Both the position numbers and the translations under genes were made by a program. Under the pieces are notes generated by a model. The model worked only from the letters and a program-made list of their open reading frames with translations, was not told where the DNA came from and did no database searches. A DNA stretch of 64,000 bases from an uncultured Gammaproteobacteria bacterium (GTDB lineage: Bacteria > Patescibacteriota > Patescibacteriia > UBA9570 > XYC2-FULL-38-9), in the NCBI GenBank assembly GCA_964344485.1, contig CAYFNF010000003.1:148467-212466 (forward strand), read 5' to 3'. This document shows positions 14,470 to 35,421 of the stretch, in pieces (positions within the stretch are counted from its first letter, which is position 1; every line of letters begins with the position of its first letter).

Positions 14470-14488
14470 AGTTATTTTGCTAATGATG

Positions 14489-14573
14489 CGGTGGGAATGG
14501 GATTTGAACCCATGGTACATTTCTGCACACACGCACTCCAAGCGTGCGCCTTAAACCACTCGGCCATCCCACC
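14489..14573 (-). tRNA. tRNA-Ser (anticodon GGA), type II with long variable arm
   Basis: Reverse complement: acceptor GGTGGGA/TCCCACC, D-arm GCCGAGTGGTTTAAGGC, anticodon stem CACGC/GCGTG loop TTGGAGT, long variable arm, T-loop TTCAAAT. Confidence 0.8.
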
Positions 14574-17600: not shown

Positions 17601-18210
17601 CATCAATCACTTCTCTTGCACTCTCTCGTGCTGAACCCAAACTACGACGTCCTTGTCGCGATGAAACACCCTGGTCTGTTTGCAGATCTGCAACTGCTTC
17701 ACGAATGAGCTCCACAATGCGTTCATGTGCTTGCAATTGCGCTACTGCACGTTTGTGTGCTCTACTACATGTTCTGACCAACCAATGTGCTCCTGATAAC
17801 TGACGGGTACGAGCCTGCATCGCTCCGCTTATAACTGCAAGATTGCTTTCAAACGTACGTTCAAACGGCAATTCCACCACAGTAACGTCATACATGCTTA
17901 AGGTGTCAAGTGCTATCTCCTCCCATTCTGTTAAGAATTGAGCGTACTCCTGCTCTATTGCCTGCAATTCCTGTTCGAGCGCTTCTAGGCTTGCTTCAAG
18001 GTGCGCGTTCATTTCATCGTAACTCTCGCCTTGGAATACTTCACGTGCAGCAAGTAGTTCTTCTACACGCTGAGCCACTCCTTCTATGCGTTGCTGCACC
18101 CCTTGAAATCGTTCAAGCATAGCTCTGCCACGTTCAACAAACTGCTCATGATGTTCATGGTACTGAGCCTCTATTGGTGTTTGGTGATTTTCGCGAATAG
18201 GTGCATTCAT
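14671..18210 (-). CDS. giant hypothetical protein (1179 aa): N-terminal coiled-coil, central HEAT/PBS-lyase-like repeat, acidic DEEFEEFEEF patch
   Basis: Uninterrupted ORF 4 nt downstream of the 1849-aa gene; LGKLGNPKAIEPLLE HEAT-like repeat; no catalytic motif recognised. Confidence 0.65.
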   Translation of the reverse strand: MNAPIRENHQTPIEAQYHEHHEQFVERGRAMLERFQGVQQRIEGVAQRVEELLAAREVFQGESYDEMNAHLEASLEALEQELQAIEQEYAQFLTEWEEIALDTLSMYDVTVVELPFERTFESNLAVISGAMQARTRQLSGAHWLVRTCSRAHKRAVAQLQAHERIVELIREAVADLQTDQGVSSRQGRRSLGSARESAREVIDDRLYAEAQQRTAEIVEQQEQLYALAGSTELHDRINARLREMHIQPIVDELLERHPGLEPQIRQWEQAVVALLTNDGNSRHPDDLRIGGERVQTFNGWEDRAGRALTDEFPRRPGDRFMMLHDRDRELRRAVEWAPSDIDRSNWENPNQQTRNLLRLFADWRAHRDFNREVVPYDRPTAAIKHQRRSLRDDAIQHVGNNDELIKILRGTQRIRLLRDDPEVAAIATDEEFEEFEEFLIETLMRDMIRPGGRESGHGTDAAMDLGKLGNPKAIEPLLEHIFYAGSGHTTVLIFSIIRRLAQSEEGRAHLEAMPGIERALIAQMVDEDSVLYQETSDVYGRTRLLSKGEFFVARAQLADLFSDTEVPEMFSFMDMPERSAFVAGLLPDGTSVGILLRQREEVERRVLEARDMTPWWTIHGLTAALAANPEFMEQIGQEAIGQEEGDAMDNFRRLLAHKKVRRSHQSRGILLQGFLRMRAQGEQGAAVLQDMMQRYRDTRDDPRRVREMFRSFEMLERFGCMEYDYDPTERLEAIRAALANIELILPRLDPPTRKAIRTRRRALIKEEQELTGLVGPTEHYRDRVATVLTDRLGVSAEIGHAIADNIDAHDRSGFLDMSTTLLLSFEAKKVDDPVEALRSVIEHHVVGDFASWKYTHECAEDQIGFLGDQREHWIETEDAVQVERSDEEQDLLEQQRSAALGLLDDADAHFAEFTADRTDDDAVTAIARQLAAVREQLTATPLERGAVLRMAMRLQQQCEAASLHQVASDVNQLYRPFTVSEVGTVTAEEFDDELRMIRLGTEPSETCQSWKRGAYNECLLSYVVDANKKGINVRGEEGEILLRCVERITQIRETNTEGEHPTLFLEPAYKTIDHPRVYQAFAQLAFNKAESCGASVSITPHVWCEQALQAFYEEAARRGATVRGDTEENKGEERDMYIARTQNEYQYSDSFGGKLSDYNTYRRAAIMEFVLPSAEQASE

Positions 18211-18214
18211 ATAT

Positions 18215-21200
18215 TTATGTTGTTATCCTACCATATCCCATTACTGTTGGAAGTAGTCTCATTGGGCTAATATCTCGATATCGTGTCTTGCCTGGTTCCC
18301 CGGTTGGCTCTTCCATGCGAGCAAGATACGCCCCGGTTGCTAGAGACTTCATAAATTTCTCGAACCCTTCATGGATTGCGCGTCCTCCTTCAGAGATAAT
18401 CATCAATACCTCTTTATACTTCTCACCGGTTTCCAAGGTGCCTGACACCACCGCAGCAACACGTTCTAACTGTTCTGCTTCAACATCAGGCACAAACGTG
18501 CGAATTCCCTCTTGCACTAACGCCGGGTTCTGGAATTGTGCGAGCATGCCTAAGAATATCTTCTTAATGCTATCAATCTCTGTTTGCGCGATCTCGCCCG
18601 CGCTTCCAAGGTCCAGCTCTCCGAGTTCACCATCTGGCGTGACCACCCAATTTCCTGGGTGCGGATCTGCTTGAAATCGTCCTTTCACGAATATTTGATA
18701 CATGAGCGCGTCAAACGCTTGTACGTGGATATCTTCTAATCGACCGACGAGACCTTCATACGCAGTCATTTCATCTGGCTGCAAGTCGTATTTCGCTTGA
18801 AAATCTGCCAAGGTGCGTCGCCCCATTGCTACGTCAGTTAATTCTCGTAACGACAACCCTCGAATCTCCTCTTCTAATATATGTTCTTCACTGTGATCTA
18901 GGATCTCTGCAATGCGCACCGGGAACAGACGCGCCATAGCTGCTTGTGGGTAGTCTTCCATAGCCGCAGCCACTGCTTCATGATTCCGTACTTCTTCTTG
19001 GAAGTTTGCCTCATCACGTAACCAACGACCGATACGATCTTCCAAACCATCAGGTACAGTAAAATCTGCTTCGCGAAGATTTCCCATAATCCTATTCAGT
19101 ACCCGAAGGTCTTCCCCGAGATGCTTTGCAATAGATGGTCTTCGCACTTTTGCAATCACACGCTGTCCGTCTTCTCTAGTCGCACGATAGACTTGTTTAA
19201 TTGACGCAGCAGAGATTCGTCTGTCCATAGAAACCAGCCGATGTGGATGGCCTTCTTCAAACTGTCCCACTGCTCCCATCATGTGCATGCTGGCAGTACG
19301 GTGGAACGTTTTTGCGTTCTGTTGGAGCTTGCGCAATTCCTCGGCGATGTCATCAGGGAGCAACGGGGTACCGTCCGCGTTCTTTTCTTCAGCTAAGACT
19401 TGGCCTGCTTTAATACCGACTGGCCCGACCGCTTCTAGTAATCCACGCAGGCGTTCTCCAATTGTAGAGTCTCCTTGTCCGCGTAGTACTTCCATCATCT
19501 CGATGTAGACTTTTGCACGTCGGAATGGACCGTACTCTTGTAATGCAGTTGTAAAGATCACTCGTACTGCTTCTCTTCCTCTCTCTCCCAGTGCTTCTGC
19601 TGCTTCAGGTGGAAAGACTCGCTCAAACGATCGATCAATAAATTCTTGGAATATCGCTTCGTCTTCTTCTTCGCGCGGGTCCATGACACCGTTCTCTCCA
19701 AAGAGCAAACGGATATAGGTCTCTTCGCGTTCCTGTGGAGTGGCTGCAAAGAGTAGGTCTGGCATGTCTTCCACTGAGCACTCATTATGTCCACCGAATG
19801 CACGTAATATGCGCGGAGGTTGATCAGTCTCTCCGATAGTCCATAATACAAATTCTTTTCTGTCTTCACGGTTTAAATATGCTAAAACCGAATTGATTTT
19901 CTCTACTGTAGATTGTTGTGATAGTTCTGCGTCCTCGGTGGTGCGTCGTTGTACATCAAAAAGACGGCGTGTGATTTCCCGTGCTTGTGGAGGAGTGCGG
20001 ACTACGCCAGTATCTCCAAGTTGCAATAGCGCTTCACCCCGTACATGTGATGCGTGTGGGTAGAGCTCACTGATACGATCCAATTCGCTCGCAAAGGTCT
20101 CTTCCCCTGTTGCAAGGTGTTCTCGGAATAATGAATTCGCTCTTCGTGACCAAAGCTGCTGATGCGCTTGATCTGCAAACAGTGGAATGGTTCGTTGATA
20201 AAACGTATATAGTTCATGTGCAACATCTGGCTGAATCTCGTTCCCTTCTGGTGCAACAACTTCGTGTCCGTTCGTAGTAAGGCCACGCTCTTGTAGTAAT
20301 GCTGTTTCTATGGCGCCTAATAATTCATCACGATAATTCGTCACCTCTGGAATGAGTTCTTGAACGCGGTCCACTCTTCCAACTGCGGGGATCGAGGGAT
20401 CCGCTGGTAATTGAGTGTAGTCTATATAGAACTCTAGTGCATTGTACCGCTCTGAGTATTTGCGGTCCCCTCGGAATATCGTAGTAAAGCTCGGCGCAGA
20501 AGGATCATACGCTGCAGCATCAGATTCGATATTACGGGGGATCAACTCACTAGTGCTTTTTGAATAATGCGACTCTCGATCTATCGGGTGATAACGTTGA
20601 ACGAATCCACTCTCCACCACCTCATCTGGAAGCGCTCCTGGATGATACACTCGAAAGATGTCGCGAAGCTGCGTATCACGTGTGGAAACTGGAACAAACT
20701 GCGTTATAGCTGCAACACTCTCATCTTCTGATCGCTCATCTGGTTCCACATGCCATCTGCCCCATTGCCATATAATGCCGTGCGCTTCTAGTGCTCGTTG
20801 CATAATTGAATATGTAACCCCGCGATCAATACGATCCACGCCCCATTCTCCACTTCTATCTTCGGCTTGTTTGCATTTCCCTTCTATCTCTACGCAATAC
20901 CGTGCGAGCTCTTCTAGCTCTGGCTGAGTGAGTGCATCAAATGCTGCTTGTAAATCTGCAGCGTGTGGTGAAACGCTGGTATCAAAATTAATCGCGCCGT
21001 CTCGCAGCACTCTCTTCAGCGGCGCAACGATGGAATCGCCTGGATTAAGCACCATATACAACCGAACATACTCAATAGACAGCGAAATGCTATAGATAGC
21101 AGCTGCTTTATCGCGCTCTGTATAATCCTCAACTTCACGTCTGTCGATACAGTCGCTATCCCACTTCGGTACCACATCAAGTGCTGCCTCTAAAAAGTCT

Positions 21201-23764
21201 AACTGCTCTTGCTCTGACATACGTGCTCGTCGCTCTGCATCATTCCATGCTCCTCGAATGTGCGTCCATATTACTGAGGGATCTTCTCCTTCTAGAAAGC
21301 GGAGCATCTCTGCAGGTGGAACAGAATCAGAACATGATGATATAATCGCATCCAGAAACTCTTGTCGAGCTCGTTTAGATTCATACGTCACTGCAGGGTA
21401 TAGATGAAGTATCGGTGCGGCTCGCTCAACTAAGTCATCGTATGATGCTATCCCGACTTCATGCAACAATCCAACTAACTCAGCTTGATGCAGAGAAGCA
21501 ACTTCAGCATGGGAAACCTGTAAAATACTATGCATCTGTTCTAGGCGTTCTTGAGGGGTGAGTGTTTGAAACCCTTCTCTCTCAGCTCGTGCTTGGATCG
21601 CACGAGTTACCACGTGCTCCCATAATACATAGATAGCATCAGCACCGCGGAGAGGTGCGTCAAATCCTGTTTCTTCTAAAAATAATTCGTTCGCTGAGGG
21701 TCTCGCTTCTATAGCTGGTTGTGGAAAGTGGCGTAACCACTGTTCACACTCCTGTTGTGAAAGTGTTGCAACAAAACCTTCAAGTTCCGCGGGTTGATAT
21801 CCTCTTGCAGATAACTTCATGGCGAGTTCAGCAACCAACTGTCCAAGTGTAGCGGCGTGCTCTGCTGAAAGTAATGCGCGACCCTCTGCGCTAGTAGTAT
21901 ACCGCTGTGCAAACCGCTGAGCGAGTTCCGGAAGTATACGATCAACAGTAGGAGAAGGAATGGTCCGTGGTTCTAAGGCTGGCATGGATTCTCCTGTGGC
22001 AATTGCTTGTCCTAACGCGGCAAGCGCTTCATTGTCATCACTATCAAACGCGTTTCGCGCTTCCATCATGAGAACTTGCCTGATGACTGCTACTCTTCCC
22101 TCTGGAGTTGAGACATCATCTGCTCTACGTAACTCTTCAGGTAGATAATGCTCTCTTGTGAGGTCGACTGTTAAGACACCTTGAGTGAGTTTGTCCAGCT
22201 GCATCTTCCAATTGCGTGCTTGGTCATGAAAAAATGGGGTACTGCTTTCACTGCAGAGAGTCATAAGCTCTTCAGGCTCTGCTGCACGCACTTGCTCTTT
22301 TACTGCATCATTATATTCATATCCGTCTTCTTTCGGCCCGTCGATATCTGCGTTAGAAATAAGCGTGTCTAGCGTGTCAGCGGACACACCATCAACTACT
22401 GCTTCTAGCTGTGCACGAAGATGCTGTACTTTACGTTGTAGTTCAATACGTGCTGCAAGCTTTGCTGCTTTTTCATGATCGTCCGGGTCTTCATCAGCAG
22501 CTGCTTGCGCTTGTGGAATTTGCTCACTGAGAAACCGTAGTGTTTCATCATATGCTTTGATTACTTCCGCGCGTTGCCGCTGCAGTCGCGTGTGCAGCGA
22601 TCGTTCAAATTTCTCTTCGTCATACGGCCCTTCCTCTACTTGTGCCCCAAAATCAAATTCTCTATCCATATATCGAGAGAGTTTATCCGGTGCTACCGAA
22701 GCCCTTGCCAAATACTCTGCTCTTCCTTCAGAGTAATGGTAACCGTAATATGCGGCATGTAGTGCATTGAGCACTTCTGCAAAATTGTGAAGCACAATCC
22801 TCTGTGCATAGTGTTTTCGCATTCGCTCCTGCTCTGCTGCGTGATGAAATAACGCGTGACGATCTAATACAAAAGCAGCAACACCAACTTCAACCGCATC
22901 ATGAAAACTCTCAGCTTGAGCGATCATGTCTTCAATATGGTCTAAACCCTCAGCACGGTACAATCGCGTGCCAGGTCGGCCGGGTGGTTCATCGATAAAT
23001 GCACGTTGCACTTCTGCTGGAACAACGGTCGGCTCTTTTTCAATATTCGGTAGCCAGGTGTCTGGGCTCTCCACTAACTCCACGAGCTCTCTATATCTAT
23101 CAGCGGATCGAGGGTGGGATGTTCCAATAGGCAGATCATTCGATAGGCTTAATAGAAACTGGATAGCTGCTAATCCCTCACGTGGATTATATCCAGCTTG
23201 TGCAAGTGCGATCAGTCCACCACGGTCAGCGTCGTATTCCGCATTCAAGCGGCGCTGCTTCTCATCGTGATCTGGATAGTCTTCATGAACGACGCCTTCT
23301 TCAGTATGCTGATCAATATGTGTACTTTCATGCGCTGCCACCATAGCGATCATGTCTTCGGTCATTGGTCGACCGTGTCGTTCGCACCAGCGCCCAAGTT
23401 CTCGCAGCAATCCCATGTATGTGTAGACGTGCGCGTGCCCGCTTACGACAAACGCATTAATTCCGGGTGAATCAATTGCAACCACATCAGTGGCGGGAAT
23501 CGATAACTGCCGCTCAATTCTTGCTTGAATGCGTGCCAGCATCTCTTTTCGCGGATCATCATCATCTAGAATTCCAAAACGCTGCTCCAATTGATAGAGC
23601 ATTCGTCGTAAATACGCTTCTGTTTGGTCTTGCCTACTTTGTGCTTCTGCAAGCCCAATTATTTCTACTCTTGGCGGTTCATCATGATCAACTTCAGGAA
23701 CTTCAGCAATTGAACGTGCTGGTCGTGGTAGTCTGGATTCTGATGCTGCAGCGTGTGAGTTCAT
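18215..23764 (-). CDS. giant multidomain protein (1849 aa): N-terminal M48-family zinc metalloprotease domain + C-terminal ABC1/UbiB-type atypical kinase-like domain
   Basis: M48 signatures INAFVVSGHAHVY, HESTH(x)..., EYDADRGGLIALAQAGYNP. ABC1 signatures VGPVGIKAGQVLAEEKNADGTPLLPDDIAEELRKLQQNAKTF, ISAASIKQVYRATREDGQRVIAKVRRPSI, FQADPHPGNWVV. Confidence 0.75.
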   Translation of the reverse strand: MNSHAAASESRLPRPARSIAEVPEVDHDEPPRVEIIGLAEAQSRQDQTEAYLRRMLYQLEQRFGILDDDDPRKEMLARIQARIERQLSIPATDVVAIDSPGINAFVVSGHAHVYTYMGLLRELGRWCERHGRPMTEDMIAMVAAHESTHIDQHTEEGVVHEDYPDHDEKQRRLNAEYDADRGGLIALAQAGYNPREGLAAIQFLLSLSNDLPIGTSHPRSADRYRELVELVESPDTWLPNIEKEPTVVPAEVQRAFIDEPPGRPGTRLYRAEGLDHIEDMIAQAESFHDAVEVGVAAFVLDRHALFHHAAEQERMRKHYAQRIVLHNFAEVLNALHAAYYGYHYSEGRAEYLARASVAPDKLSRYMDREFDFGAQVEEGPYDEEKFERSLHTRLQRQRAEVIKAYDETLRFLSEQIPQAQAAADEDPDDHEKAAKLAARIELQRKVQHLRAQLEAVVDGVSADTLDTLISNADIDGPKEDGYEYNDAVKEQVRAAEPEELMTLCSESSTPFFHDQARNWKMQLDKLTQGVLTVDLTREHYLPEELRRADDVSTPEGRVAVIRQVLMMEARNAFDSDDNEALAALGQAIATGESMPALEPRTIPSPTVDRILPELAQRFAQRYTTSAEGRALLSAEHAATLGQLVAELAMKLSARGYQPAELEGFVATLSQQECEQWLRHFPQPAIEARPSANELFLEETGFDAPLRGADAIYVLWEHVVTRAIQARAEREGFQTLTPQERLEQMHSILQVSHAEVASLHQAELVGLLHEVGIASYDDLVERAAPILHLYPAVTYESKRARQEFLDAIISSCSDSVPPAEMLRFLEGEDPSVIWTHIRGAWNDAERRARMSEQEQLDFLEAALDVVPKWDSDCIDRREVEDYTERDKAAAIYSISLSIEYVRLYMVLNPGDSIVAPLKRVLRDGAINFDTSVSPHAADLQAAFDALTQPELEELARYCVEIEGKCKQAEDRSGEWGVDRIDRGVTYSIMQRALEAHGIIWQWGRWHVEPDERSEDESVAAITQFVPVSTRDTQLRDIFRVYHPGALPDEVVESGFVQRYHPIDRESHYSKSTSELIPRNIESDAAAYDPSAPSFTTIFRGDRKYSERYNALEFYIDYTQLPADPSIPAVGRVDRVQELIPEVTNYRDELLGAIETALLQERGLTTNGHEVVAPEGNEIQPDVAHELYTFYQRTIPLFADQAHQQLWSRRANSLFREHLATGEETFASELDRISELYPHASHVRGEALLQLGDTGVVRTPPQAREITRRLFDVQRRTTEDAELSQQSTVEKINSVLAYLNREDRKEFVLWTIGETDQPPRILRAFGGHNECSVEDMPDLLFAATPQEREETYIRLLFGENGVMDPREEEDEAIFQEFIDRSFERVFPPEAAEALGERGREAVRVIFTTALQEYGPFRRAKVYIEMMEVLRGQGDSTIGERLRGLLEAVGPVGIKAGQVLAEEKNADGTPLLPDDIAEELRKLQQNAKTFHRTASMHMMGAVGQFEEGHPHRLVSMDRRISAASIKQVYRATREDGQRVIAKVRRPSIAKHLGEDLRVLNRIMGNLREADFTVPDGLEDRIGRWLRDEANFQEEVRNHEAVAAAMEDYPQAAMARLFPVRIAEILDHSEEHILEEEIRGLSLRELTDVAMGRRTLADFQAKYDLQPDEMTAYEGLVGRLEDIHVQAFDALMYQIFVKGRFQADPHPGNWVVTPDGELGELDLGSAGEIAQTEIDSIKKIFLGMLAQFQNPALVQEGIRTFVPDVEAEQLERVAAVVSGTLETGEKYKEVLMIISEGGRAIHEGFEKFMKSLATGAYLARMEEPTGEPGKTRYRDISPMRLLPTVMGYGRITT

Positions 23765-23832: not shown

Positions 23833-26800
23833 TTATGCAGCAGCAGCTGGCGGCTCGGGTTGCTGACGATGTCGATGATGGCTGAACCATGCTATACCAA
23901 CTAAGAATATAATGACGATTCCAATGTTAATCATCACCAGCATGGTGGTGCTTGAGAGGCGATTCTTCTCTTCAATCACAAACCGCGTGATCTCGACCTG
24001 GTCAGATTTCACACCGTTTACTTCGGTTTGAGCAAAAACGACGTGATCTCCTTCACCGAGCAACTCTGCTGGAACCGTAATACTCCATTTACCGTTGGTG
24101 TCTACTTGCGCGACTTTTACTAATGGGTCTGAATAGATCGTCAGAATTGCCACAGCAGACATCTCTCTATACTGCTCAGCAATCTCTCCGGAGATAGTAA
24201 TCTCGTTCTTCTGTTCTTCGACTGTGCCGCCGAATAATCGTCTTGTTGCATCAATAATATCCCACTGCTGAACTTGCGTATAGGTGACGGTCCCATCATC
24301 TGATACCGTCGGTTCGATTGTAGTGCTATCTTGCTGGAACTCTATATCCGCAGTGTCTTGCAGCTGTCCAGTCTCGGTGGTCTGCAATTCTTCTCTTTGC
24401 TGCTTGGTCAGCGGCACGACTTCATCTGTATATGTATACGGATTCTCTGGCGGTTGTTTGACTCCATCCTCAGCATATTGTGTTTTTATTAGCTCTTCAA
24501 ATTTCTTTACGTTCACTACAACCACATCTGGAAGGCCGGTGTCGGTTGAACCCCCTTGGATTGGGTTGGTGCCGTACTTCACTTCATCACTATCTGATAC
24601 GCCGTCGTCATCAGAATCCGTGTCTGTTGGGTCAGAACCCAAATCCACTTCGTCGGAATCGCTTACCCCATCTTGATCTGAGTCCGCGTCTTCTGGATCA
24701 GTACCTAGCTCTTTCTCTTGTTCATCAGTCAGGCCGTCTCCGTCACTATCGGTCTCAGCTGGCTCGGTGTCAGTTCCTTGGTCAGGGCCTGGGTCTGTGC
24801 CCTGGCTCGGATCGCCGGTGTCAGTGTCTGGAGTATCAGTAGAAGGAGTTTCTTGAGGGGTGGCAGGGGCTACGGGTACGCTCACAGGAGCACTTACTGG
24901 TGCTGACACAGTAAAGGTGATTTCATTCGAAGTAGTCTCTGGATAGCCAGCTTGTTCAGAAGTGACAGCGTATGCAGTATGCGTGCCTGTAGATAGTGCA
25001 GATGGACGACATGCAACAGAGCTGGTCTCTCCACCACCAGTTGCAGTAGTATCGCAAATTCTCTGCCCATCAACATAGATTTGGGTATAAGCACCAGTAC
25101 GTGCTAATAGAGTAATCCATGGTCGGTTATATGATGTCTGCGCGTCCACCACAACTTGTTGCATCACTGCTGCAGGGTATGGGGTTGCGCGTACAATAGT
25201 CTGTGGAGTAAATACCTTTATCACAGTATCTTTTTTCGTATTCACGACCTTTACCTTGATCGCATTCGCTCCAATTGATAGTGCGGTGGTTGGTGTGCCC
25301 TGATATGAAATCACTGGACCAGTGTCGCTGGTAATAGCAGCAGTTCCGCTCAACGTACCGTTTACGAACAGTTGTACTGCAACATCATCCACTGAGATAT
25401 TTCCGATATAGACGTTACCGAAAAAGACCGGGTTCTTACTAAACGTCACATTCGAAGTCAATTTACTTCGCTCCTCTTTTGGATAGATATGAAATCGATC
25501 TGACACTACAGAAGATCCGACCGTATACCGGACACTGGATGTCTTTCCCACATTCCCTTTCTTATCTTCGATATTTGCCTCAGACGTATGTTTGTCGTAA
25601 TTCTTCTGGATCTGCGAATCTACCTCCCATTCTCCTTGCGCGTCTGTGGTGTCAGAACCGTCTAACTCACCTTCGGTATATACAGAAACTTCAGACTCTG
25701 TTTCAGCAGTTCCACTAAATGAAACGTATTGGTTGTAAACAATGTCATTTTGTTCTGGCTCTTCGATTACTGCTGCAGGCGGGCCGATTGAGAAACTCGC
25801 GGTCTTCTCCCACTCTGTGGAGCTGGATCTACTAGCGGTCTTCACTTTTGTGTACAGCTCCCAGAGTCCGCGCTTCAGTGTAAACTCTGTTTCTGCTGTG
25901 CCGTTACTGCCGACCTGTTCTTCATTGATCTTCTCTGCGCCGTTCTTTACGCGCACAAATTTAAACACCACCCACTGGCCAGTGGTTCCGGTTGCTGATA
26001 GCTCTACCTTCAGACGACCGGTATCCTCCTGTGCACTCAGTCGATGTACGCTCGAAGGATCACTTCGCAACTGCTCTCCATTTACTGTTAGTGCGGTGGG
26101 TAACAGTGATGACGCTGATCCTTCCTGTGTAGTGAATGAGTCTACTGAAGAGTTCGATGTATTACTACTCGCATCCGCGCTCACTACCTGATAGTAATAT
26201 GTAGTGCTGCTTAAAAGCCCTGATACAGTCACTGAATGGCTCTTTGTTAATCCACTAGTTGTTTGTGACTGCGGAATTTGCTCAGTCTTTCCATATCGTA
26301 CTTGTGATGTTGCTTTTTCATTCGTGGTCCAAGTAATAACCGCGGATGTAGAACGGCGAGTGACTTGAATATCTGAAATAGTGGGCGCCGAAAGGTCTCC
26401 AGTATCTGTGGTTGGGATTACTGACCCTGAAGTAAACTGAGATGTATTGTTTGATGAGTCTGTTAGCGTTGCAGTGACTTTATAGTTAGAAGCATATGAT
26501 TCTAGAGTGCTCTTGGGAACATCAACGCTCCATGTTAAACTCGTGACCGCTGCTTCTGTTATATAGACCTCGCCTTCATTATTCCGGTCTACAAAGACCT
26601 CCACTGTTCCGTCACTAGATGCAGTACCCGAGACAGTGTATGTATCTCCTTGCAAAGAAATTGCACTGATCACTGGGGTAGCAAGCCCCTCATTTGCTCC
26701 ATCAATTAGATTAATTCCACTTGAGGAGTTGTTATAGATAGAATTCTGTGTTACTAAATTGTATTTAGTTCCACTTTGAGAGATGTTCAATCCATCTGCA

Positions 26801-29202
26801 TAGGCGTTAGTAACTATGTTGCCCGGTCCAATGGTGTTGCTCTGACTAGTATTGGAGAGTGTTACTGCGTTCCACTGACACGGAAGCGGATCACCGTTTG
26901 TATCGATGCCGATCCTGTTTGATGAGAGAGTATTGTTTGAAGAGTCAGCAAATACCACACAGCGGTCTATATTGCCGATCACATTATCACTAATGGTGTT
27001 CCCAGTGCTGTTCGCTCGAATGATAATTCCATATACGTCATCCTGAGTAACAGGTTTCGTGATACCAATCCTATTACTGGAAATCACATTATTAATTCCA
27101 CCTTGCATTAGAATGTTCATGACATTGCCCGCAATAGTGTTGCTACCATTGATAGTGTTAGAACTGCCAGTGAGTTCAAGGCCGACAGCATTCTGCATCA
27201 CCGTTTGTTTACTCACTGCGAGGCCAATAGTATTCCCAGTGGCGGTGTTACTGTCTCCTTCAATCCATAACCCCACGCCGCTATGGTTAGAGATGAAATT
27301 CGTAGATATAGAATTACTATCGCTTTCAGTATCAATCACAAGACCGTTTGTGGTGTTTCCGATATTCGTATCACTTGCAGATACACCGATGTAGTTATCT
27401 GAGAGTGTGTTTGAATCAGAGGAATAGATAGCAATGCCCGATTCATTAAAACCAATGACATTAGATTGCGATGTTCCAATTCTACTATTTGATACTCCAG
27501 TAAATAGAATTCCGGTTCCAGTGTTCCCTCGATCGACTAGTGAAGCGTTGGTTCCAATATAATTACCCTCTATCGCTAGCTGAGAGATGTTTCCTGCGCT
27601 GCTATTTGCCTCAATACCATTTGATAGATTTCCAGAGATAGTATTCTTCGAAATCGATACCGCATTCGCGCTAATGGCAATAGAGATGCCATCCTCACCA
27701 TTCGAAACCGCTGCTCCACTTGAATCCAATCCAATAGTATTCTCAGTTATTGTGACATCGCTATCGTTTTCCAAGTAAATCCCATTTGCATCATTTCCTG
27801 AAATCACGTTATTCGGACCAATCGTTGTGTCTGCCCCACCAAAGATTCCGTCAGTATTTGGAATGGCTGTTCCAGAACTGTTTAATCCAATATAGTTCCC
27901 GGTGATTGTTCCAGTGCTCTGGTTCACTACTACCCCTGACTGGGTATTACCTGCAATAGTGTTGTTCGAAAGTGTATTCGCTCCTTGAAATGTTACACCG
28001 TTATTATTTTCAACTGCGCTCGTGCCGTTACTATCTACTCCGATATTATTCTTATTCACCGTGTTCCCAGATGTAGTTGCTTCTAAGAAGATACCTGACT
28101 TTGTATTGCCTGAAATTGTATTGCCAACGATCGTGTTATTGTTTCCGGTTACTCGAATACCTGAATCCCCATTAGTGGATTTTGTGGAACCGTCTGCAGT
28201 TATACCTATATAGTTCAAACCGATAGTACTGCTACTGCCTCGCAATTCAATTCCGTTGCTCGTATTTCCAGAGATGATATTGCGGAACGCTTGGTTGCTG
28301 CTATCTCCAATAGTGATGCCAGATACCGTCGCTGCTATATTAACTCCGTTTATCCCATTAGCGGTGATAGTGTTAGAACGCAATACATTAGTATTTGAAT
28401 TCTCGATAAAATTCACTCCCTGCTCAGAATTATTCGATATCGAGTTACCGGTTACCGTGGTGCTGGTTGCAGTGCCCCCAAAATAGATTCCGTTACGATT
28501 GCCTTTGATTGTGTTGCCTGAAATGGCATTATTACTCGATGCGACCTGAATGCCTTCACCCCCTGCAAAGCCTTCTATCGTGAAATTTGATATCTGACAA
28601 TTATCCGCTCGGATAGCTAGCCCATCATTATCTTGAGCTGCTGACAGCGCGCTCCCTTCAATGCCAACTCTGTTATCCCCATCGATTATAAGTTCATCAG
28701 TAATCGCGGGTAGCACACTTGAGGTTACTGCTATCTTTCCGTTTAATGAACTATTGAAACTGATCACGTCAGCACCAAGACTCGCGTTTGCATCGAGTAT
28801 AGCTTGCCGCAAAGATCCCGCACCGCTGTCATTCAAGTTTGACACAGTGAAATTAGCAGCATACGCGACTTTGATCTGATTCACCGGTAGCACTACAGAT
28901 GAAATTGCATACAAGAGAATAACCACTGCAACAAAGAACGCGGTGACTAACCCGCTGCGTAGTCGTATCTTTTTTCTGCGACTGTGATGCTCATGATACG
29001 AAAAACCCCAGATCCCTTTATGGTCTTGGTCATATAATGTACAGAATGTGTGCTGAGGTGGATAGAAAATGATATAGAAATATTCGTACAGCACGTATGC
29101 TATATATAGTGGAACGAGCGCAATGCCTAAAAGGACACGAATAATGAACGGTCGGGGTTTGGCTTGTACGTAGCACTCAATATGATTGATGGTTTTTTTC
29201 AT
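23833..29202 (-). CDS. giant cell-surface protein (1789 aa): N-terminal TM/signal, GSLRQAI (CSLREA-like) motif, many parallel beta-helix repeats, FN3-like domain, TSP3-like Ca-binding D-x-D-x-D-G repeats, C-terminal TM anchor
   Basis: Repetitive N.I.GN...GI units typical of right-handed beta-helix; DSDGDGLTDEQE/DSDQDGVSDSDE/DSDDDGVSDSDE repeats; C-terminal hydrophobic LVMINIGIVIIFLVGIAWF + HHRHRQQ. Confidence 0.8.
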   Translation of the reverse strand: MKKTINHIECYVQAKPRPFIIRVLLGIALVPLYIAYVLYEYFYIIFYPPQHTFCTLYDQDHKGIWGFSYHEHHSRRKKIRLRSGLVTAFFVAVVILLYAISSVVLPVNQIKVAYAANFTVSNLNDSGAGSLRQAILDANASLGADVISFNSSLNGKIAVTSSVLPAITDELIIDGDNRVGIEGSALSAAQDNDGLAIRADNCQISNFTIEGFAGGEGIQVASSNNAISGNTIKGNRNGIYFGGTATSTTVTGNSISNNSEQGVNFIENSNTNVLRSNTITANGINGVNIAATVSGITIGDSSNQAFRNIISGNTSNGIELRGSSSTIGLNYIGITADGSTKSTNGDSGIRVTGNNNTIVGNTISGNTKSGIFLEATTSGNTVNKNNIGVDSNGTSAVENNNGVTFQGANTLSNNTIAGNTQSGVVVNQSTGTITGNYIGLNSSGTAIPNTDGIFGGADTTIGPNNVISGNDANGIYLENDSDVTITENTIGLDSSGAAVSNGEDGISIAISANAVSISKNTISGNLSNGIEANSSAGNISQLAIEGNYIGTNASLVDRGNTGTGILFTGVSNSRIGTSQSNVIGFNESGIAIYSSDSNTLSDNYIGVSASDTNIGNTTNGLVIDTESDSNSISTNFISNHSGVGLWIEGDSNTATGNTIGLAVSKQTVMQNAVGLELTGSSNTINGSNTIAGNVMNILMQGGINNVISSNRIGITKPVTQDDVYGIIIRANSTGNTISDNVIGNIDRCVVFADSSNNTLSSNRIGIDTNGDPLPCQWNAVTLSNTSQSNTIGPGNIVTNAYADGLNISQSGTKYNLVTQNSIYNNSSSGINLIDGANEGLATPVISAISLQGDTYTVSGTASSDGTVEVFVDRNNEGEVYITEAAVTSLTWSVDVPKSTLESYASNYKVTATLTDSSNNTSQFTSGSVIPTTDTGDLSAPTISDIQVTRRSTSAVITWTTNEKATSQVRYGKTEQIPQSQTTSGLTKSHSVTVSGLLSSTTYYYQVVSADASSNTSNSSVDSFTTQEGSASSLLPTALTVNGEQLRSDPSSVHRLSAQEDTGRLKVELSATGTTGQWVVFKFVRVKNGAEKINEEQVGSNGTAETEFTLKRGLWELYTKVKTASRSSSTEWEKTASFSIGPPAAVIEEPEQNDIVYNQYVSFSGTAETESEVSVYTEGELDGSDTTDAQGEWEVDSQIQKNYDKHTSEANIEDKKGNVGKTSSVRYTVGSSVVSDRFHIYPKEERSKLTSNVTFSKNPVFFGNVYIGNISVDDVAVQLFVNGTLSGTAAITSDTGPVISYQGTPTTALSIGANAIKVKVVNTKKDTVIKVFTPQTIVRATPYPAAVMQQVVVDAQTSYNRPWITLLARTGAYTQIYVDGQRICDTTATGGGETSSVACRPSALSTGTHTAYAVTSEQAGYPETTSNEITFTVSAPVSAPVSVPVAPATPQETPSTDTPDTDTGDPSQGTDPGPDQGTDTEPAETDSDGDGLTDEQEKELGTDPEDADSDQDGVSDSDEVDLGSDPTDTDSDDDGVSDSDEVKYGTNPIQGGSTDTGLPDVVVVNVKKFEELIKTQYAEDGVKQPPENPYTYTDEVVPLTKQQREELQTTETGQLQDTADIEFQQDSTTIEPTVSDDGTVTYTQVQQWDIIDATRRLFGGTVEEQKNEITISGEIAEQYREMSAVAILTIYSDPLVKVAQVDTNGKWSITVPAELLGEGDHVVFAQTEVNGVKSDQVEITRFVIEEKNRLSSTTMLVMINIGIVIIFLVGIAWFSHHRHRQQPEPPAAAA

Positions 29203-29465
29203 ATCTCAGGATAACAAAAAGGCCTTCTCCTCAATAAAAAGCCTTTATTTTTCTATTCAATGAATGCATATACTATTGTCTGGTTTTGTTTTTGTTTTTG
29301 AACTGACTACATATAGAATTTTAACATTTTTAAGATTGTTTGTCAAACAATAAAATCCGGGAAAAAGCGGGTTTTGCTGTCCGCAGGATACAAAAAAAGC
29401 CAGGGACCCACGATCGGGTGTGGCGTTAGCTCAGGAACGGGTGACGCGGTGCTGCGTCGGTCCGG

Positions 29466-29759
29466 CTACGCGCTGGGCGCGTCGCTGGCCAGGGCCAGCA
29501 GGCCGTCCGGCATGACCGCGGCGAGCGTACCGAGGTGGCCGACGCCGTTGGCGCCGCTCGAGCCGTTCCCGGGCTCGTTGGACTGCGCGTCCTGGTCGGC
29601 GGTACCGCCGTCGCTGCTGCCGTCGTCGTCCGGGCTCTTCCTCTGGCTGCTGCCGGGCAGGCCGTCCGCCTCGCCACGTCGGGCGAGCTGGGCCGTGAGG
29701 TTCTGTGAGCCACCGACTCCGCGGTGCAGGGGGCAGGCGTTCCGTCGTCTCTGCGTCAT
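29466..29759 (-). CDS. small Gly/Ser/Asp-rich protein (97 aa) in about 70% GC island
   Basis: GAGGAG RBS 6 nt upstream of ATG; third-codon-position GC about 95% in this frame over a 60-nt sample, versus Arg/Pro/Ala-rich nonsense in overlapping frames. Confidence 0.45.
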   Translation of the reverse strand: MTQRRRNACPLHRGVGGSQNLTAQLARRGEADGLPGSSQRKSPDDDGSSDGGTADQDAQSNEPGNGSSGANGVGHLGTLAAVMPDGLLALASDAPSA

Positions 29760-29880
29760 CTCTTCTCCTCGTCAGTTCGACGTTCGCGCAGGCGTTGGGC
29801 AGGAGCCCAACTAAAAGCATCGAGTTGCCTCGAGCTTAACGCAAGAACTCTACACGAAAGTCTAATATTTGTCAAGAGTA

Positions 29881-29909
29881 GACTAGAAAACAGGGTTATT
29901 CGCCCTGTT
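29881..29909 (-). terminator. intrinsic terminator of ppsA (AACAGGG-N7-CCCUGUU + U-run on minus strand)
   Basis: 7-bp perfect stem just downstream of ppsA stop, followed by TTTTCT on the coding strand. Confidence 0.55.
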
Positions 29910-29929: not shown

Positions 29930-32374
29930 TTAGCTCTTATTCTTCAACTCTTTTTCATGCTGCGCAATCATCACCGAAGTCTTTACAACTGTGTCAGGAT
30001 TCAATGAAATAGAATCAATTCCTTTGTCGACTAAGAACTCTGCGATCTCTGGAAAGTCTGATGGTGCTTGTCCACAGATCCCGATCTTCTTCCCTTCTTC
30101 ATGAGCATAGCGAATCACTCGTTCAAGGATAATCGTAACCGCAAGATTCCGTTCGTCATACAGATGAGCAACTAATCCAGAGTCACGGTCCAACCCAAGC
30201 AGCAGTTGTGTCAGATCATTGGTCCCGATAGAGTATCCATCAAATATCTTTAAGAACTCTTTTGCGAGAATCACATTCGCTGGTATCTCACACATCATGT
30301 AGATCTCTAATCCATTCTCTCCTTGTTTCAGTCCGTTCTCTGCCATGATCTGTACTACCTTCTTCCCTTCCTCTGGTGTACGACAGAACGGGATCATAGC
30401 CTTCATATTCGTGAGCCCCATCTCATTGCGTACTCGTTTAAACGCCTCGCACTCTAACGCAAACGCTTCTTTATACTTCTCGGAGTAGTACCGTGACGCA
30501 CCACGCCATCCGATCATGGGGTTTTCCTCATGTGGCTCAAATTGCTTTCCTCCAATTAAGTTCGCGTACTCATTGGACTTGAAATCAGACATGCGCACGA
30601 TCACATCATGCGGATAAAACGCTGCACAGATCTTTCCCACTCCTTCTGCGAGCTTCTCAACAAAGTATTCGGTCTTGTCTTTATACCCAGCGGTTAATTC
30701 CTCTATCTGTTCCTTTACTTCACTGTCTTCAAGCTCATTAAAACGCAGCAATGCTAATGGATGTATCTTGATATAGTCCAAAATGATCAGTTCTTCACGT
30801 GCGAGTCCTACTCCCTGATTCGGAATTTGCGCAAAGTCGAATACGCGCGACGGGTCCGCTACAATCATCATCATCTGTGTTTCGGGCAGTTCCATACCAG
30901 AGATGTCAGTTTCATCTATACGAAACGGTAATTCGCCTTCATAGATAAACCCTCTCTCACCTTCTGCACACGAGACCGTCACGGTATCACCAGAATGCAA
31001 CGTGGTCGTAGCTTCTCCGGTGCCGACAATAGCCGGAATGCCGAGCTCACGAGAGACAATAGCAGCATGGGATGTTCTGCCTCCGGAGTTAGTTACAATC
31101 CCAGAGGCGATCTTCATAATCGGCTCCCAATCAGGGTCTGTTATTTCAGTCACAAGTATCTGTCCTTTTTGAAATCGGTGGATCTCAGACGCGTTTTTAA
31201 TGACATTTACTTCACCAGTACCGATCTTTGCGCCAACTGCGACTCCTTCCAACAACACCTTGCCCTTCTCTTCTAATACATACTCTCTGATCACATTCTT
31301 GTCTGTTTGTGACTGCACGGTCTCTGGACGCGCTTGCACAATGTATAACTCTCCGGTCCCACCATCTTTGGCCCATTCAATATCCATGGCTTTTTCATAG
31401 TGCTCCTCAATCTGCATGGCCCAGTGTGCGAGTGTAAGAATCTCCTCATTTGTCAGAACGAACTGTTGTTGCTCTTCTTCTGGAACCTGCACTTCTTTGA
31501 CCGCGCCTCCTAATGAGACCTCTGCTTCAGCTGCATAGACCATCTTATACTGCTTGGACCCAAGTTTTTTCTCAATAATCGGAGAGTTGGTAAATGCGAT
31601 CTTGCCCTGCTTCTCTACAGCGCCCTGCTTGAGCGCGGGCTTGAATACAATGAACTCATCTGGGTCAACCTTTCCTTGAACCACCATCTCGCCTAGCCCC
31701 CACGTAGCGTTGATCACCACCGCGTTCTCAAATCCAGACTCGGGGTCAATAGAGAACATCACTCCAGAGCATGCAGTGTCTGATCGCACCATCTTCTGGA
31801 TACCAACCGAAAGTGCAATCGTAAAGTGATCAAAGTTCTTGTCTTCACGGTATGAGATCGCGCGGTTAGTAAACAGTGACGCAATACAGCGCCTAGTGGC
31901 TTCTAGTACTTCGTGTGCTCCTTGTACATGTAAAAAAGTCTCTTGCTGTCCAGCGAATGACGCGTCCGGCAAGTCCTCAGCAGTTGCAGAGGACCGAACC
32001 GCGACATCCACATACTCTTCTCCATCTTTTTTGCTCAGTTCAGCATACGCTTGCTCCACTGCCTGCTCTAACTCATTCGGAAAATCTGCCTTCAAAATCG
32101 TCTCGCGTACTTTATGCCCTCGTTCCGTCAGGTTCTTCATGTCTGTAGTGTCTAAATCCGAAAGAATCTCCTTAATAGTATCTCGAATACCGGCTTGATC
32201 AATAAAGAAATTATACGCGTGCGCGGTCAGAGCAAATCCATTTGGAACTCGAATCCCTTTTTCAGCCAAGTTTTGATACATTTCGCCGAGCGAAGCGTTC
32301 TTACCGCCGACATACGGCACGTCCTCGATGCTTAAGTCGTTGAACCAAAGTATATATTCTTGGTCTTTGCTCAT
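29930..32374 (-). CDS. ppsA: phosphoenolpyruvate synthase (pyruvate, water dikinase)
   Basis: Collinear with E. coli PpsA: VGGKNASLGEM, RSSATAEDLPDASFAGQ, catalytic His region TNSGGRTSHAAIVSRELGIPA, PEP-utilising C-terminal domain; start chosen at MSKDQEY by homology. Confidence 0.85.
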   Translation of the reverse strand: MSKDQEYILWFNDLSIEDVPYVGGKNASLGEMYQNLAEKGIRVPNGFALTAHAYNFFIDQAGIRDTIKEILSDLDTTDMKNLTERGHKVRETILKADFPNELEQAVEQAYAELSKKDGEEYVDVAVRSSATAEDLPDASFAGQQETFLHVQGAHEVLEATRRCIASLFTNRAISYREDKNFDHFTIALSVGIQKMVRSDTACSGVMFSIDPESGFENAVVINATWGLGEMVVQGKVDPDEFIVFKPALKQGAVEKQGKIAFTNSPIIEKKLGSKQYKMVYAAEAEVSLGGAVKEVQVPEEEQQQFVLTNEEILTLAHWAMQIEEHYEKAMDIEWAKDGGTGELYIVQARPETVQSQTDKNVIREYVLEEKGKVLLEGVAVGAKIGTGEVNVIKNASEIHRFQKGQILVTEITDPDWEPIMKIASGIVTNSGGRTSHAAIVSRELGIPAIVGTGEATTTLHSGDTVTVSCAEGERGFIYEGELPFRIDETDISGMELPETQMMMIVADPSRVFDFAQIPNQGVGLAREELIILDYIKIHPLALLRFNELEDSEVKEQIEELTAGYKDKTEYFVEKLAEGVGKICAAFYPHDVIVRMSDFKSNEYANLIGGKQFEPHEENPMIGWRGASRYYSEKYKEAFALECEAFKRVRNEMGLTNMKAMIPFCRTPEEGKKVVQIMAENGLKQGENGLEIYMMCEIPANVILAKEFLKIFDGYSIGTNDLTQLLLGLDRDSGLVAHLYDERNLAVTIILERVIRYAHEEGKKIGICGQAPSDFPEIAEFLVDKGIDSISLNPDTVVKTSVMIAQHEKELKNKS

Positions 32375-32447
32375 AGGGGTGTGTTTATATGAAAAATGTG
32401 GCGGTTGCCACATACTAGAGTATCATATTTCGAACGATCTATAAACT

Positions 32448-33866: not shown

Positions 33867-33878
33867 GTACGTATTATA

Positions 33879-34313
33879 TCATATTGAACAATAAAAAAAA
33901 GCTGCTGTTGCAGGTACTGACCAGGCTGCGGCTACGCGGGTGAGTGCGAGTCTGTCACGTCGCAGAACTCGTTCCGGTACCTCCAGGGCAGTGAGCTGCC
34001 CCGCGGTGTAGCGCTGCCAGATGATGAGCTGATCCAGGTGCGTTCCCGGGATGCTGCTGAGCGCAGCGTTGGTGCGGCGCACAGCCGTGAGCACGGTCAT
34101 GGGAGGTGCACCGTTGGCAGATGCCTCGGTTCCGCTGGCCACGTAGATGCGGCCCTCTCCACGTACCTCGTCCAGCTCCTCGCTGGTGAAGCCCCCGCCC
34201 AGTGAATCGGGCTTGAAGACCTGGAGGCTCCCGATCTCCACCACCAGCCTGAGCGCGGTCTCGCTGGCGTACAGCACGTGCGTCGGCGTTCCAGAAGTTG
34301 TGTTGCAGTTCAT
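33879..34313 (-). CDS. hypothetical protein (about 144 aa) in GC-rich island
   Basis: High-GC CDS with GGAG RBS upstream of MNCNTTSG start; no motif recognised; boundaries tentative. Confidence 0.35.
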   Translation of the reverse strand: MNCNTTSGTPTHVLYASETALRLVVEIGSLQVFKPDSLGGGFTSEELDEVRGEGRIYVASGTEASANGAPPMTVLTAVRRTNAALSSIPGTHLDQLIIWQRYTAGQLTALEVPERVLRRDRLALTRVAAAWSVPATAAFFYCSI

Positions 34314-34523
34314 ACGTTCGCTCCAGCACTGTCCTTTCAATGCAGCTATGGGTGTTCCCACCAACAGGGTATACCATAGCAGGAATAAATATGCAAACCA
34401 CTCTCATACGTCACACTATATAAGACATGATATGAAAACTGCTTGACTGTAACACCAAAACTACCTATTATCAGGGACGGAATAGTCTTTGTCGCCGTAT
34501 GAACCTGTTGGAATGGAGGTGTT

Positions 34524-34856
34524 TTGAGCGCCGCAGCCCACGACCGAGACTTCCCGCGTACGCGAGGTGAACCCGTCGAGACCGATGACGATGTCCGTGT
34601 CGCACTGCAACGACTCGAAGCCATCCCCGCACTGGAAGGTGCAGTGGCAACGATCGTGGCCTGGTGCTTCGTGGCCTTCGCGGTCAAGGAAGGATGGTGG
34701 CACGCCATCCTGATCTTCACCCTCGTGGGATGCGTGATCGCGTCTCTGGCGTGTATCGTCCACCGGGCCGACCTGAACCGGAAGTACATCCGGTCGTTCC
34801 TGTTCTTCTTCCTGGTCTGGCCACTGGTGATGACGGTCAAGGTCAAGAGCTTCTGA
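34524..34856 (+). CDS. small two-TM membrane protein (110 aa), GC-rich, TTG start
   Basis: GGAGG 4 nt upstream of TTG; upstream TTGACT-17-TATTAT promoter at about 34443-34471; two hydrophobic helices. Confidence 0.4.
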   Translation: MSAAAHDRDFPRTRGEPVETDDDVRVALQRLEAIPALEGAVATIVAWCFVAFAVKEGWWHAILIFTLVGCVIASLACIVHRADLNRKYIRSFLFFFLVWPLVMTVKVKSF

Positions 34857-34989
34857 TCACGGTACGCGGTTTTTTTATACTATTGCATTTTTTCGCGTTA
34901 ATCGCGTTTATTTCTATAAACAGCACTTGATTTTTTCATTTCTCTCTGTATACTAGGGGCGCACCTTTTTACTGCGAGGGGAGATAGGA

Positions 34990-35340
34990 GTGCACCCAGA
35001 GGAGCGGGAAGCCGCTCAGGCCCAATTCAGCATCGAATCATCGCGACAGCATGCCATCATGGCGATCGCGGTGCTGGGAAGCATCGCCTTTCACGGCGTC
35101 TTCCTGCCGGTTGTCTGGATCTTCTTCGGAATGTTCATTGCAGTTGGAGCAGACATCGCCCTGTGCATTCTGGCCGCCCTGGTGTGCCAGAACTGCGTCA
35201 AGGTCGTCCGCATACCTCGTCATGCGGGCATACTGCTCACGCTGTCGTACTTCCCGGAGTTCCTGGTCTGGGCTGCAATGTGGCCGATGATGGTCACTGC
35301 TGCGAAGATCCACTTCAGTCGAATGTCACCTCCCCCTTGA
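34990..35340 (+). CDS. small polytopic membrane protein (116 aa), GC-rich, GTG start
   Basis: Purine-rich RBS, upstream TTGATT-16-TATACT promoter at about 34927-34954; 3 hydrophobic segments. Confidence 0.4.
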   Translation: MHPEEREAAQAQFSIESSRQHAIMAIAVLGSIAFHGVFLPVVWIFFGMFIAVGADIALCILAALVCQNCVKVVRIPRHAGILLTLSYFPEFLVWAAMWPMMVTAAKIHFSRMSPPP

Positions 35341-35421
35341 GGCGACACGCAGCAACTTTTTCTACAACAACGCCCGGTATAACACCGGGCTTTTATAGTT
35401 GTGTTTTACTGCTATTCAGCG

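Follow-up and report, generated by a model that had tools for sequence, protein, structure and literature searches.

In a 64,000-nucleotide stretch of bacterial DNA (contig CAYFNF010000003.1, positions 148,467 to 212,466; hereafter the window), we analysed a short islet of unusually high G+C (GC) content, which lies between ppsA, the gene of phosphoenolpyruvate synthase, and the gene of a giant protein, and which carries one open reading frame (ORF) of 97 codons, here called ORF97. [quoted passage not shown] The features at the locus, all of them on the minus strand, are given below in the direction of transcription.

29930 to 32413, minus strand: ppsA (phosphoenolpyruvate synthase), the last gene in the conserved block S6-SSB-(S18)-EF-P-PK-ppsA (EF-P, elongation factor P; PK, pyruvate kinase); the true start is likely at 32374
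29889 to 29909, minus strand: terminator-like hairpin of ppsA, AACAGGG-CGAAUAA-CCCUGUU then UUCUAG (from a scan and the sequence)
29847 to 29875, minus strand: P1, a sigma-70-type promoter-like site, TTGACA-17 nt-TAGAGT (10 of 12 matches)
29820 to 29833, minus strand: short hairpin UCGAG-GCAA-CUCGA then UGCUUUUAG (from a scan; -13.8 kcal/mol, z = -1.4)
29794 to 29811, minus strand: hairpin at the islet's 5' edge with a perfect 7-bp stem, GUUGGGC-UCCU-GCCCAAC (from sequence and fold)
29399 to 29808, minus strand: the high-GC islet, presumed foreign, 72.4% GC (bounds from a two-state segmentation and the composition profile)
29765 to 29770, minus strand: Shine-Dalgarno motif GAGGAG, 5 nt 5' of the ORF97 ATG (read from the sequence)
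29466 to 29759, minus strand: ORF97, an orphan coding sequence of 97 codons, its product basic at the N-terminus, acidic and rich in Gly/Ser/Asp in the middle, and weakly hydrophobic at the C-terminus
29392 to 29424, minus strand: terminator-like element, hairpin GCCACACCCGAUCGUGGGUCCCUGGC then U7, at the islet's 3' edge (from fold and sequence)
29318 to 29346, minus strand: P2, a near-consensus promoter-like site, TTGACA-17 nt-TAAAAT with a TG extension (11 of 12 matches)
29218 to 29246, minus strand: 11-bp hairpin with a U-run, 16 nt 5' of the ATG of the giant gene and within its leader (from a scan and fold)
23833 to 29202, minus strand: gene of a giant protein of 1789 aa with Beta_helix/NosD, TSP3 repeats and an FN3-like domain

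ORF97 had been predicted beforehand from the sequence, and its position, strand, length of 97 codons and given sequence all matched our own reading exactly, as did its placement between the ppsA terminator hairpin and the giant gene.

Composition, coding signal and product of ORF97

The islet has the highest GC content among all 410-nt segments of the window (z = 6.3), the GC content of the window being 45.7% and that of such segments averaging 0.457 with a standard deviation of 0.042. The original prediction had described a gene of about 70% GC with a GC content at third codon positions (GC3) of about 95%; a GC-rich gene with a strong third-position bias was indeed found, although the measured values are 74.1% GC for the ORF, 72.4% for the whole islet and 0.908 for GC3. 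The GC content at the first, second and third codon positions of ORF97 (GC1, GC2 and GC3) is 0.72, 0.59 and 0.91, against a GC3 of 0.41 to 0.49 in the neighbouring genes. Both composition and codon-position pattern are clearly unlike those of the resident genome, and they bear out the view of a coding-type, genome-foreign segment of high GC content. The islet is also present with 100% identity, both junctions included, on a 2423-bp metagenome contig of the ENA (L001; ERZ930068 / ERR2281803, k127_69466), where the identity extends from the end of ppsA through the entire islet and the spacer into the beginning of the giant gene.

Since the DNA is so GC-rich and four other frames in the islet are also open (57 to 146 codons), the length of the ORF alone is no evidence for coding. 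Support for ORF97 being a coding sequence comes from the codon-position signal, namely a three-nucleotide periodicity of GC content (chi-square p = 4.5e-6), the range of which was attained by 0 of 20,000 shuffles. In sliding windows, this signal is limited to ORF97, fading at both ends of the ORF and being absent from either flank, and in windows of 60 nt the third-position GC content is 0.9 to 1.0 from about 29700 to 29470. GC1 exceeds GC2 on the minus strand only; the antisense frame that shares the third positions has a GC1 of 0.61 and a GC2 of 0.68, and encodes a product with much Cys, Trp, Pro and Arg, a bias typical of antisense frames. The strand and frame chosen in the original prediction are thus correct. 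An in-frame TGA stands 4 codons 5' of the ATG.

Within the islet, the leader of ORF97 is 52 nt long and contains the GAGGAG motif that had been proposed as the ribosome-binding site (RBS), with the ATG 5 nt downstream of it. The stop codon is followed by 41 nt, by the hairpin (29399 to 29424) and then by seven T (29392 to 29398). A simple terminator scan missed this element because its stem is interrupted, and put the ppsA hairpin (29889 to 29909) on the plus strand because that stem is palindromic. With its RBS, intact ORF and hairpin with a T-run, the segment thus resembles one complete small gene without a promoter of its own composition. P1 sits in AT-rich DNA of host type about 88 nt 5' of the ATG, and an RpoD-type sigma factor is encoded within the window.

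The predicted product has a mass of 9.6 kDa, an isoelectric point of 5.06, a net charge of -3 and a grand average of hydropathy (GRAVY) of -0.72, with a composition of G16 A13 S11 L9 D9 R7; its tryptic peptides include GEADGLPGSSQR and NACPLHR. It had been described as a Gly/Ser/Asp-rich acidic protein, which holds for the middle region (residues 31-72, charge -6), whereas the protein as a whole is only mildly acidic and its first 30 residues are basic (+5). Residues 73-97 are weakly hydrophobic and are broken by Pro, Asp and Gly. A single-sequence AlphaFold2 model, which is weak evidence, gave a mean predicted local distance difference test (pLDDT) score of 57, a predicted template modelling (pTM) score of 0.15 and one helix at residues 19-31, and the GRAVY value together with a net charge of only -3 is borderline by the charge-hydropathy criterion. 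As had been anticipated, these model scores fit a product that is in large part disordered, or that at least defies prediction, and disorder is probable. The start MTQRRR resembles the n-region of a signal peptide, and the residues that follow (NACPLHRGVGGSQNLTAQLARRGE) are polar or charged. Judged from hydropathy in 11-residue windows, which is negative across the first 65 or so residues, neither the shape of a Sec or Tat signal (there is no hydrophobic core after RRR) nor a lipobox was found in ORF97, and the suggestion that the protein is secreted did not hold.

No homologue of ORF97 was found in any collection searched. A word-indexed search of 5.8 billion clusters and a full HMMER search over 1.84 billion representative proteins each returned ORF97 itself only, and its 90% cluster consists of one member from one contig. 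With E limited to 0.1, Pfam, NCBIfam, PHROGs and PADLOC yielded no family; the PDB sequences yielded no chain at E up to 10, tblastn against plasmids and the search of IMG/VR gave no match, and two scans of JGI metagenome contigs for degenerate-codon motifs were likewise negative. At the DNA level, comparison of the islet with phages and plasmids gave only chance matches of 30-80 nt in GC-rich genomes. As ORF97 has no homologue anywhere, its donor cannot be named, which leaves the description of the protein as actinobacterial in type unsupported; an actinobacterial origin is one of several possibilities for DNA of ~74% GC.

The ppsA junction and high-GC islets in relatives

The block S6-SSB-S18-EF-P-PK-ppsA is kept in four contigs of relatives (L082, L083, L086 and L087), and the PPDK_N, PEP-utilizers and PEP-utilizers_C domains of Pfam are seen in the ppsA of relatives. 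In three of the relatives' contigs, tRNA-Ser(GGA) lies 60 to 85 nt after ppsA (L083:12501-12586, L087:12515-12602 and L088:8148-8233), each time preceded by a promoter of the form TTGxxx-17-TACAGT. The corresponding gene of the window lies far away:

14488 to 14573, minus strand: tRNA-Ser(GGA), 15.3 kb from ppsA, past the islet and three giant genes

P1 occupies the position that the promoter of tRNA-Ser(GGA) has in the relatives. On the strength of this position and of a similar -10 box alone, it may be speculated that P1 is a tRNA promoter left without its gene, with the islet now lying in front of it. ORF97 follows ppsA in none of the relatives, where this place is taken by tRNA-Ser(GGA), by other genes or by another islet, and no closely related strain with an empty site was found in the collections, the next ppsA being 76% identical.

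High-GC genes were found in several of these relatives. Immediately after ppsA, contig L002 (Kerfeldbacteria CG15) has a 64% GC islet (L002:10431-10762) that stands behind TTGACA-17-TAGTCT, contains a 42-codon ORF with a GC3 of 0.84 and ends in a T8 run. In L088, a gene of 374 aa and 60% GC (L088:8333-9457) lies just downstream of ppsA, beyond the adjoining tRNA-Ser(GGA). Elsewhere, L087 carries a 70% GC gene with a GC3 of 0.92 and a lipoprotein-like N-terminus, MRTFALITLLAAALAGC (L087:2778-3555), and L083 begins with the last part of a 65% GC gene, after which comes a textbook terminator (L083:1-398). These genes of L002, L088, L087 and L083 (60-70% GC, GC3 0.80-0.92) have no Pfam match, and no homology was found between them and ORF97 or among one another. 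The islet of L087 gave tblastx matches to the ORF97 islet (best E = 3e-5); as they are scattered over many frames and registers, we rejected them as compositional artefacts.

The region just 3' of ppsA is a variable junction, at which high-GC DNA would have been acquired at least three separate times in the clade. In other places, the window itself holds at least five more insertions of high-GC genes (islets A, B, D, E and F, the ORF97 islet being islet C). Given this recurrence, both within the window and in independent assemblies of relatives, islets made of a single high-GC gene are a trait of the clade and no quirk of one assembly.

Proposed origin and expression of ORF97

With moderate confidence, we read the islet as a horizontally acquired orphan gene of high GC content with its own transcription unit, probably a fairly ordinary outcome of gene transfer. 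Foreign DNA of about 410 bp would have been inserted directly 3' of ppsA, at a variable junction of a Kerfeldbacteria-related chromosome, by DNA uptake and subsequent illegitimate recombination. Natural competence has been experimentally shown in Patescibacteria (PMC10633639), and genomic islands as well as singly transferred genes are common in groundwater Patescibacteria (PMC12455944). The islet would have brought one complete small gene and no promoter, and P1, which is of host type, would drive it as a monocistronic unit whose transcription mostly ends at the hairpin and T7 (29424 to 29392); for the giant gene, P2 would serve as a separate and stronger promoter. ORF97 would encode a small protein that is not secreted and is disordered for the most part, presumably located in the cytoplasm. 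That this protein is of use to the cell is possible, though somewhat doubtful.

Several observations weigh against this reading. A weak hairpin, terminator-like or of leader type (29820 to 29833), stands between P1 and ORF97. Flanking direct repeats, target-site duplications, terminal inverted repeats and mobility genes were not found at the islet, and the bounds of the insertion were drawn solely from composition, there being no empty site to compare with and the nearest relative being only 76% identical in ppsA. A transposon or a miniature inverted-repeat transposable element (MITE) was considered and ruled out, as the islet has neither terminal repeats nor duplications and no second copy was found elsewhere in the 64-kb window. 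Neither a donor nor a homologue of ORF97 was found in any collection, including the same ENA assembly; the GC3 of 0.91 points to little amelioration, and yet the missing donor copy, even in that assembly, leaves a very recent transfer from an abundant neighbour unsupported, so that the source may be rare or unsampled. ORF97 is of low complexity, and an intact ORF in recently acquired DNA says nothing on selection. Lastly, the product of ORF97 is on record from the ENA contig only and not from the NCBI contig of 301,665 bp, from which the ppsA of the window (in its 827-aa form) is on record; ORF97 may be absent there through not having been called as a gene, and the ENA and NCBI records may derive from the same reads.

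Of the other explanations, one differs from the above solely in regard to function in this cell. ORF97 could be inert passenger DNA: a real gene in the donor, it would in this cell either go untranslated or be a useless leftover of uptake, still awaiting deletion or amelioration. In favour of this, ORF97 is a strict orphan whose low-complexity product lacks a confident fold, no conservation can be demonstrated as the two copies are identical, and the neighbouring islets show signs of decay (islet D has an ORF that lacks its own stop, and the product of islet B covers only part of its family profile). Still, ORF97, its RBS and its terminator are intact, a good promoter of host type lies directly upstream, and streamlined CPR genomes are expected to shed useless DNA fast; we take this explanation seriously while thinking it rather unlikely. 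The proposal that ORF97 is the leader gene of the giant surface-protein operon, co-transcribed and functionally coupled with it, fares less well. The giant gene does follow on the same strand, 263 nt downstream, and the interrupted stem of the terminator may leak. However, the predicted hairpin with its U7 and then the TG-extended P2, with its 11 of 12 matches, intervene between the two genes, for which reason the idea is unsupported; moreover, the 74% GC of ORF97 bears no relation to the 45% GC of the giant genes, and the pairing is seen in no relative. From the arrangement of these elements, co-transcription appears unlikely, and we hold the coupling as a whole to be improbable.

An assembly chimera, or a contaminating fragment foreign to this chromosome, would fit the abrupt break in composition in a genome derived from a metagenome, where both records are possibly of one read set. 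It would need, however, two joins 410 bp apart that frame a complete gene inside an intergenic gap, and both junctions are identical in the two deposited records (the 301,665-bp NCBI contig and ENA k127_69466). The islets, furthermore, occupy intergenic gaps and leave the host genes unbroken, each begins near an RBS and most end near a T-run, and similar islets occur in at least four unrelated assemblies of relatives, all of which makes a chimera very improbable. Even less probable, in our view, is a small secreted or surface-exposed protein that works with the neighbouring giant protein. The neighbour is a probable surface protein, and Gly/Ser/Asp-rich linkers are common in exported proteins, but behind the N-terminal RRR there is no hydrophobic segment, the hydropathy of the first ~65 residues is negative and a lipobox is missing. 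GC-rich intergenic elements in AT-richer genomes are often RNAs, and the islet, as a GC-rich island between a promoter and a terminator, could be suspected of encoding a structured non-coding RNA. This we consider the least credible explanation of all, given the strong codon-position periodicity that is limited to one ORF and a folding energy no better than that of shuffled sequences (z = -0.67). In Rfam, searched at E up to 10, the best match scored 20 bits against a threshold of 60 bits and lay outside the islet, ARAGORN found no tmRNA, and the islet of L002 at the same place is not homologous.

Conceivably, though we think it quite unlikely, ORF97 belongs to a class of single-gene cassettes that extend from RBS to terminator, lack a promoter and have been captured repeatedly by this Kerfeldbacteria-related clade from a high-GC partner, possibly the host of this bacterium. 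Such cassettes may land behind resident promoters, for example the post-ppsA promoter that serves tRNA-Ser(GGA) in relatives. In a radical variant, they could have been copied from RNA, which would have given them their transcript-like boundaries. If the capture of cassettes were true, the islets would bear the host's molecular fingerprint and would be a way for the symbiont to come to make proteins of host type.

With 72-74% GC and a GC3 of 0.91, the ORF97 islet is, in our judgement, far above the typical composition of Patescibacteria. As an orphan gene in a small transferred islet, it is of a kind already known. The horizontal gene transfer (HGT) and small islands described from groundwater Patescibacteria (mSystems 2025, PMC12455944), where most transfers are reported to come from other Patescibacteria, are alike in their atypical composition, their lineage specificity, their often single genes and a donor that is often unrecoverable; unlike those cases, ORF97 is without any homologue and hence cannot be scored by a phylogeny-based HGT caller. 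There is also a likeness to tRNA-adjacent genomic islands, as the islet lies at a junction that holds tRNA-Ser(GGA) in relatives and the high-GC gene of L088 adjoins the tRNA. In contrast to such islands, it is only 410 bp long and on the 5' side of the tRNA, and no integrase, tRNA remnant, duplicated tRNA 3' end or att-like repeat was found at the islet. Bacterial ORFans are usually ascribed to phage or other mobile DNA, and those of well-studied bacteria are typically AT-rich relative to the genome. ORF97 resembles them in being short, without homologues, atypical in composition and located at a variable chromosomal junction, but it is much more GC-rich than its genome and showed no phage or plasmid similarity. 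Host-to-symbiont gene transfer, finally, occurs in epibiotic Saccharibacteria. These bacteria live on Actinobacteria and are naturally competent (PMC10633639). Here, too, a CPR genome holds genes of high-GC composition, for which uptake by competence is a plausible route; unlike the Saccharibacteria, the present organism is related to Kerfeldbacteria, and no actinobacterial or other donor was identified.

The value of ORF97 lies in its context, that is, in the many sharply bounded, un-ameliorated high-GC single-gene insertions of this lineage, each apparently fitted with a promoter of host type; two or three of them stand just 3' of ppsA as independent events. Identification of the donor, for instance among high-GC genomes of the same sample, could let the islets point to the host of an uncultivated symbiont, and they could also show how streamlined genomes acquire and express foreign genes. 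The clade-wide, promoter-adjacent high-GC cassettes and the hotspot after ppsA are a more interesting lead than ORF97 itself.

Other high-GC islets and large genes of the window

The other high-GC islets of the window are the following.

4395 to 4882, minus strand: islet A, 64% GC, GC3 0.80; ORF 4390 to 4896, a 168-aa xanthine/hypoxanthine phosphoribosyltransferase-like protein
6323 to 7179, plus strand: islet B, 59% GC, GC3 0.70; ORF 6264 to 7232, a GCS2/YbdK-like carboxylate-amine ligase
33879 to 34313, minus strand: islet D, in the gap between the genes of EF-P and PK; no family match
34524 to 34856, plus strand: islet E, in the same gap; no family match
34990 to 35340, plus strand: islet F, in the same gap; no family match

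The phosphoribosyltransferase of islet A was the one islet gene of the window that we searched for homologues in order to find a donor. Its best non-self homologues are 50-55% identical; the two contigs with relatives of it that were inspected have 58% and 37% GC, and the only named match is a metagenome-assembled genome of candidate division WS2. The GC-rich DNA of this islet starts at about the RBS and stops about 10 nt past the stop codon, at a T8 run. The product of islet B covers only part of the family profile (Pfam E = 1.5e-10). As its first 20 or so codons are AT-rich and host-like, the gene looks compositionally chimeric or decaying. The gap between EF-P and PK, which is 60 bp in L083, measures 1556 bp in the window (33867-35421) and contains the three high-GC ORFs of islets D, E and F, two of which encode small, weakly similar membrane proteins. 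In islet D, the ORF lacks its own stop codon and continues past the T8 run into host DNA. Islets B and D were compared with plasmids and gave no match. Sigma-70-like hexamers, read by eye in the AT-rich DNA upstream, are clear in the case of E and F but weak in that of A and D, and none was picked for B. A run of T7 to T8 follows islets A, C, D and E, whereas B and F have only short T-runs further downstream.

Among the housekeeping genes in the window are those of pyruvate kinase, ppsA, EF-P, S6, SSB, DnaG, RpoD, ClpB and RecG, and the window also encodes several proteins of very large size in which Pfam domains are few or absent. Three large genes follow one another down to 14671, beginning with the one at 23833 to 29202. 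The second (18215-23764, minus strand, 1849 aa) encodes a domain like that of ABC1 atypical kinases near the C-terminus and has a partial match to M48 peptidases near the N-terminus, and the third (14671 to 18210, 1179 aa) has no Pfam match. The hairpin at 29218-29246 lies between P2 and the ATG of the first giant gene (29202) and carries GAGGAG in the loop; for this gene it could act as an attenuator or a leader structure. The minus-strand tails behind two hairpins of the locus are alike, namely GGCCTTTTTGTTATCCTG (29207-29224), which follows the leader hairpin of the giant gene, and GGCTTTTTTTGTATCCTG (29384-29401), which follows the terminator of the islet; they are identical at 15 of 18 positions, which may be due to chance or to a shared terminator tail. 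The end of the window (63747-64000) is a stretch of 68% GC with repetitive units of the GCAGC/CCAGC type (GCAGCAGCTCCAGCTGCATCTGCAGCGCCTCC...), and, unlike the single-gene islets, it has the look of a coding repeat of low complexity that continues past the window's edge.

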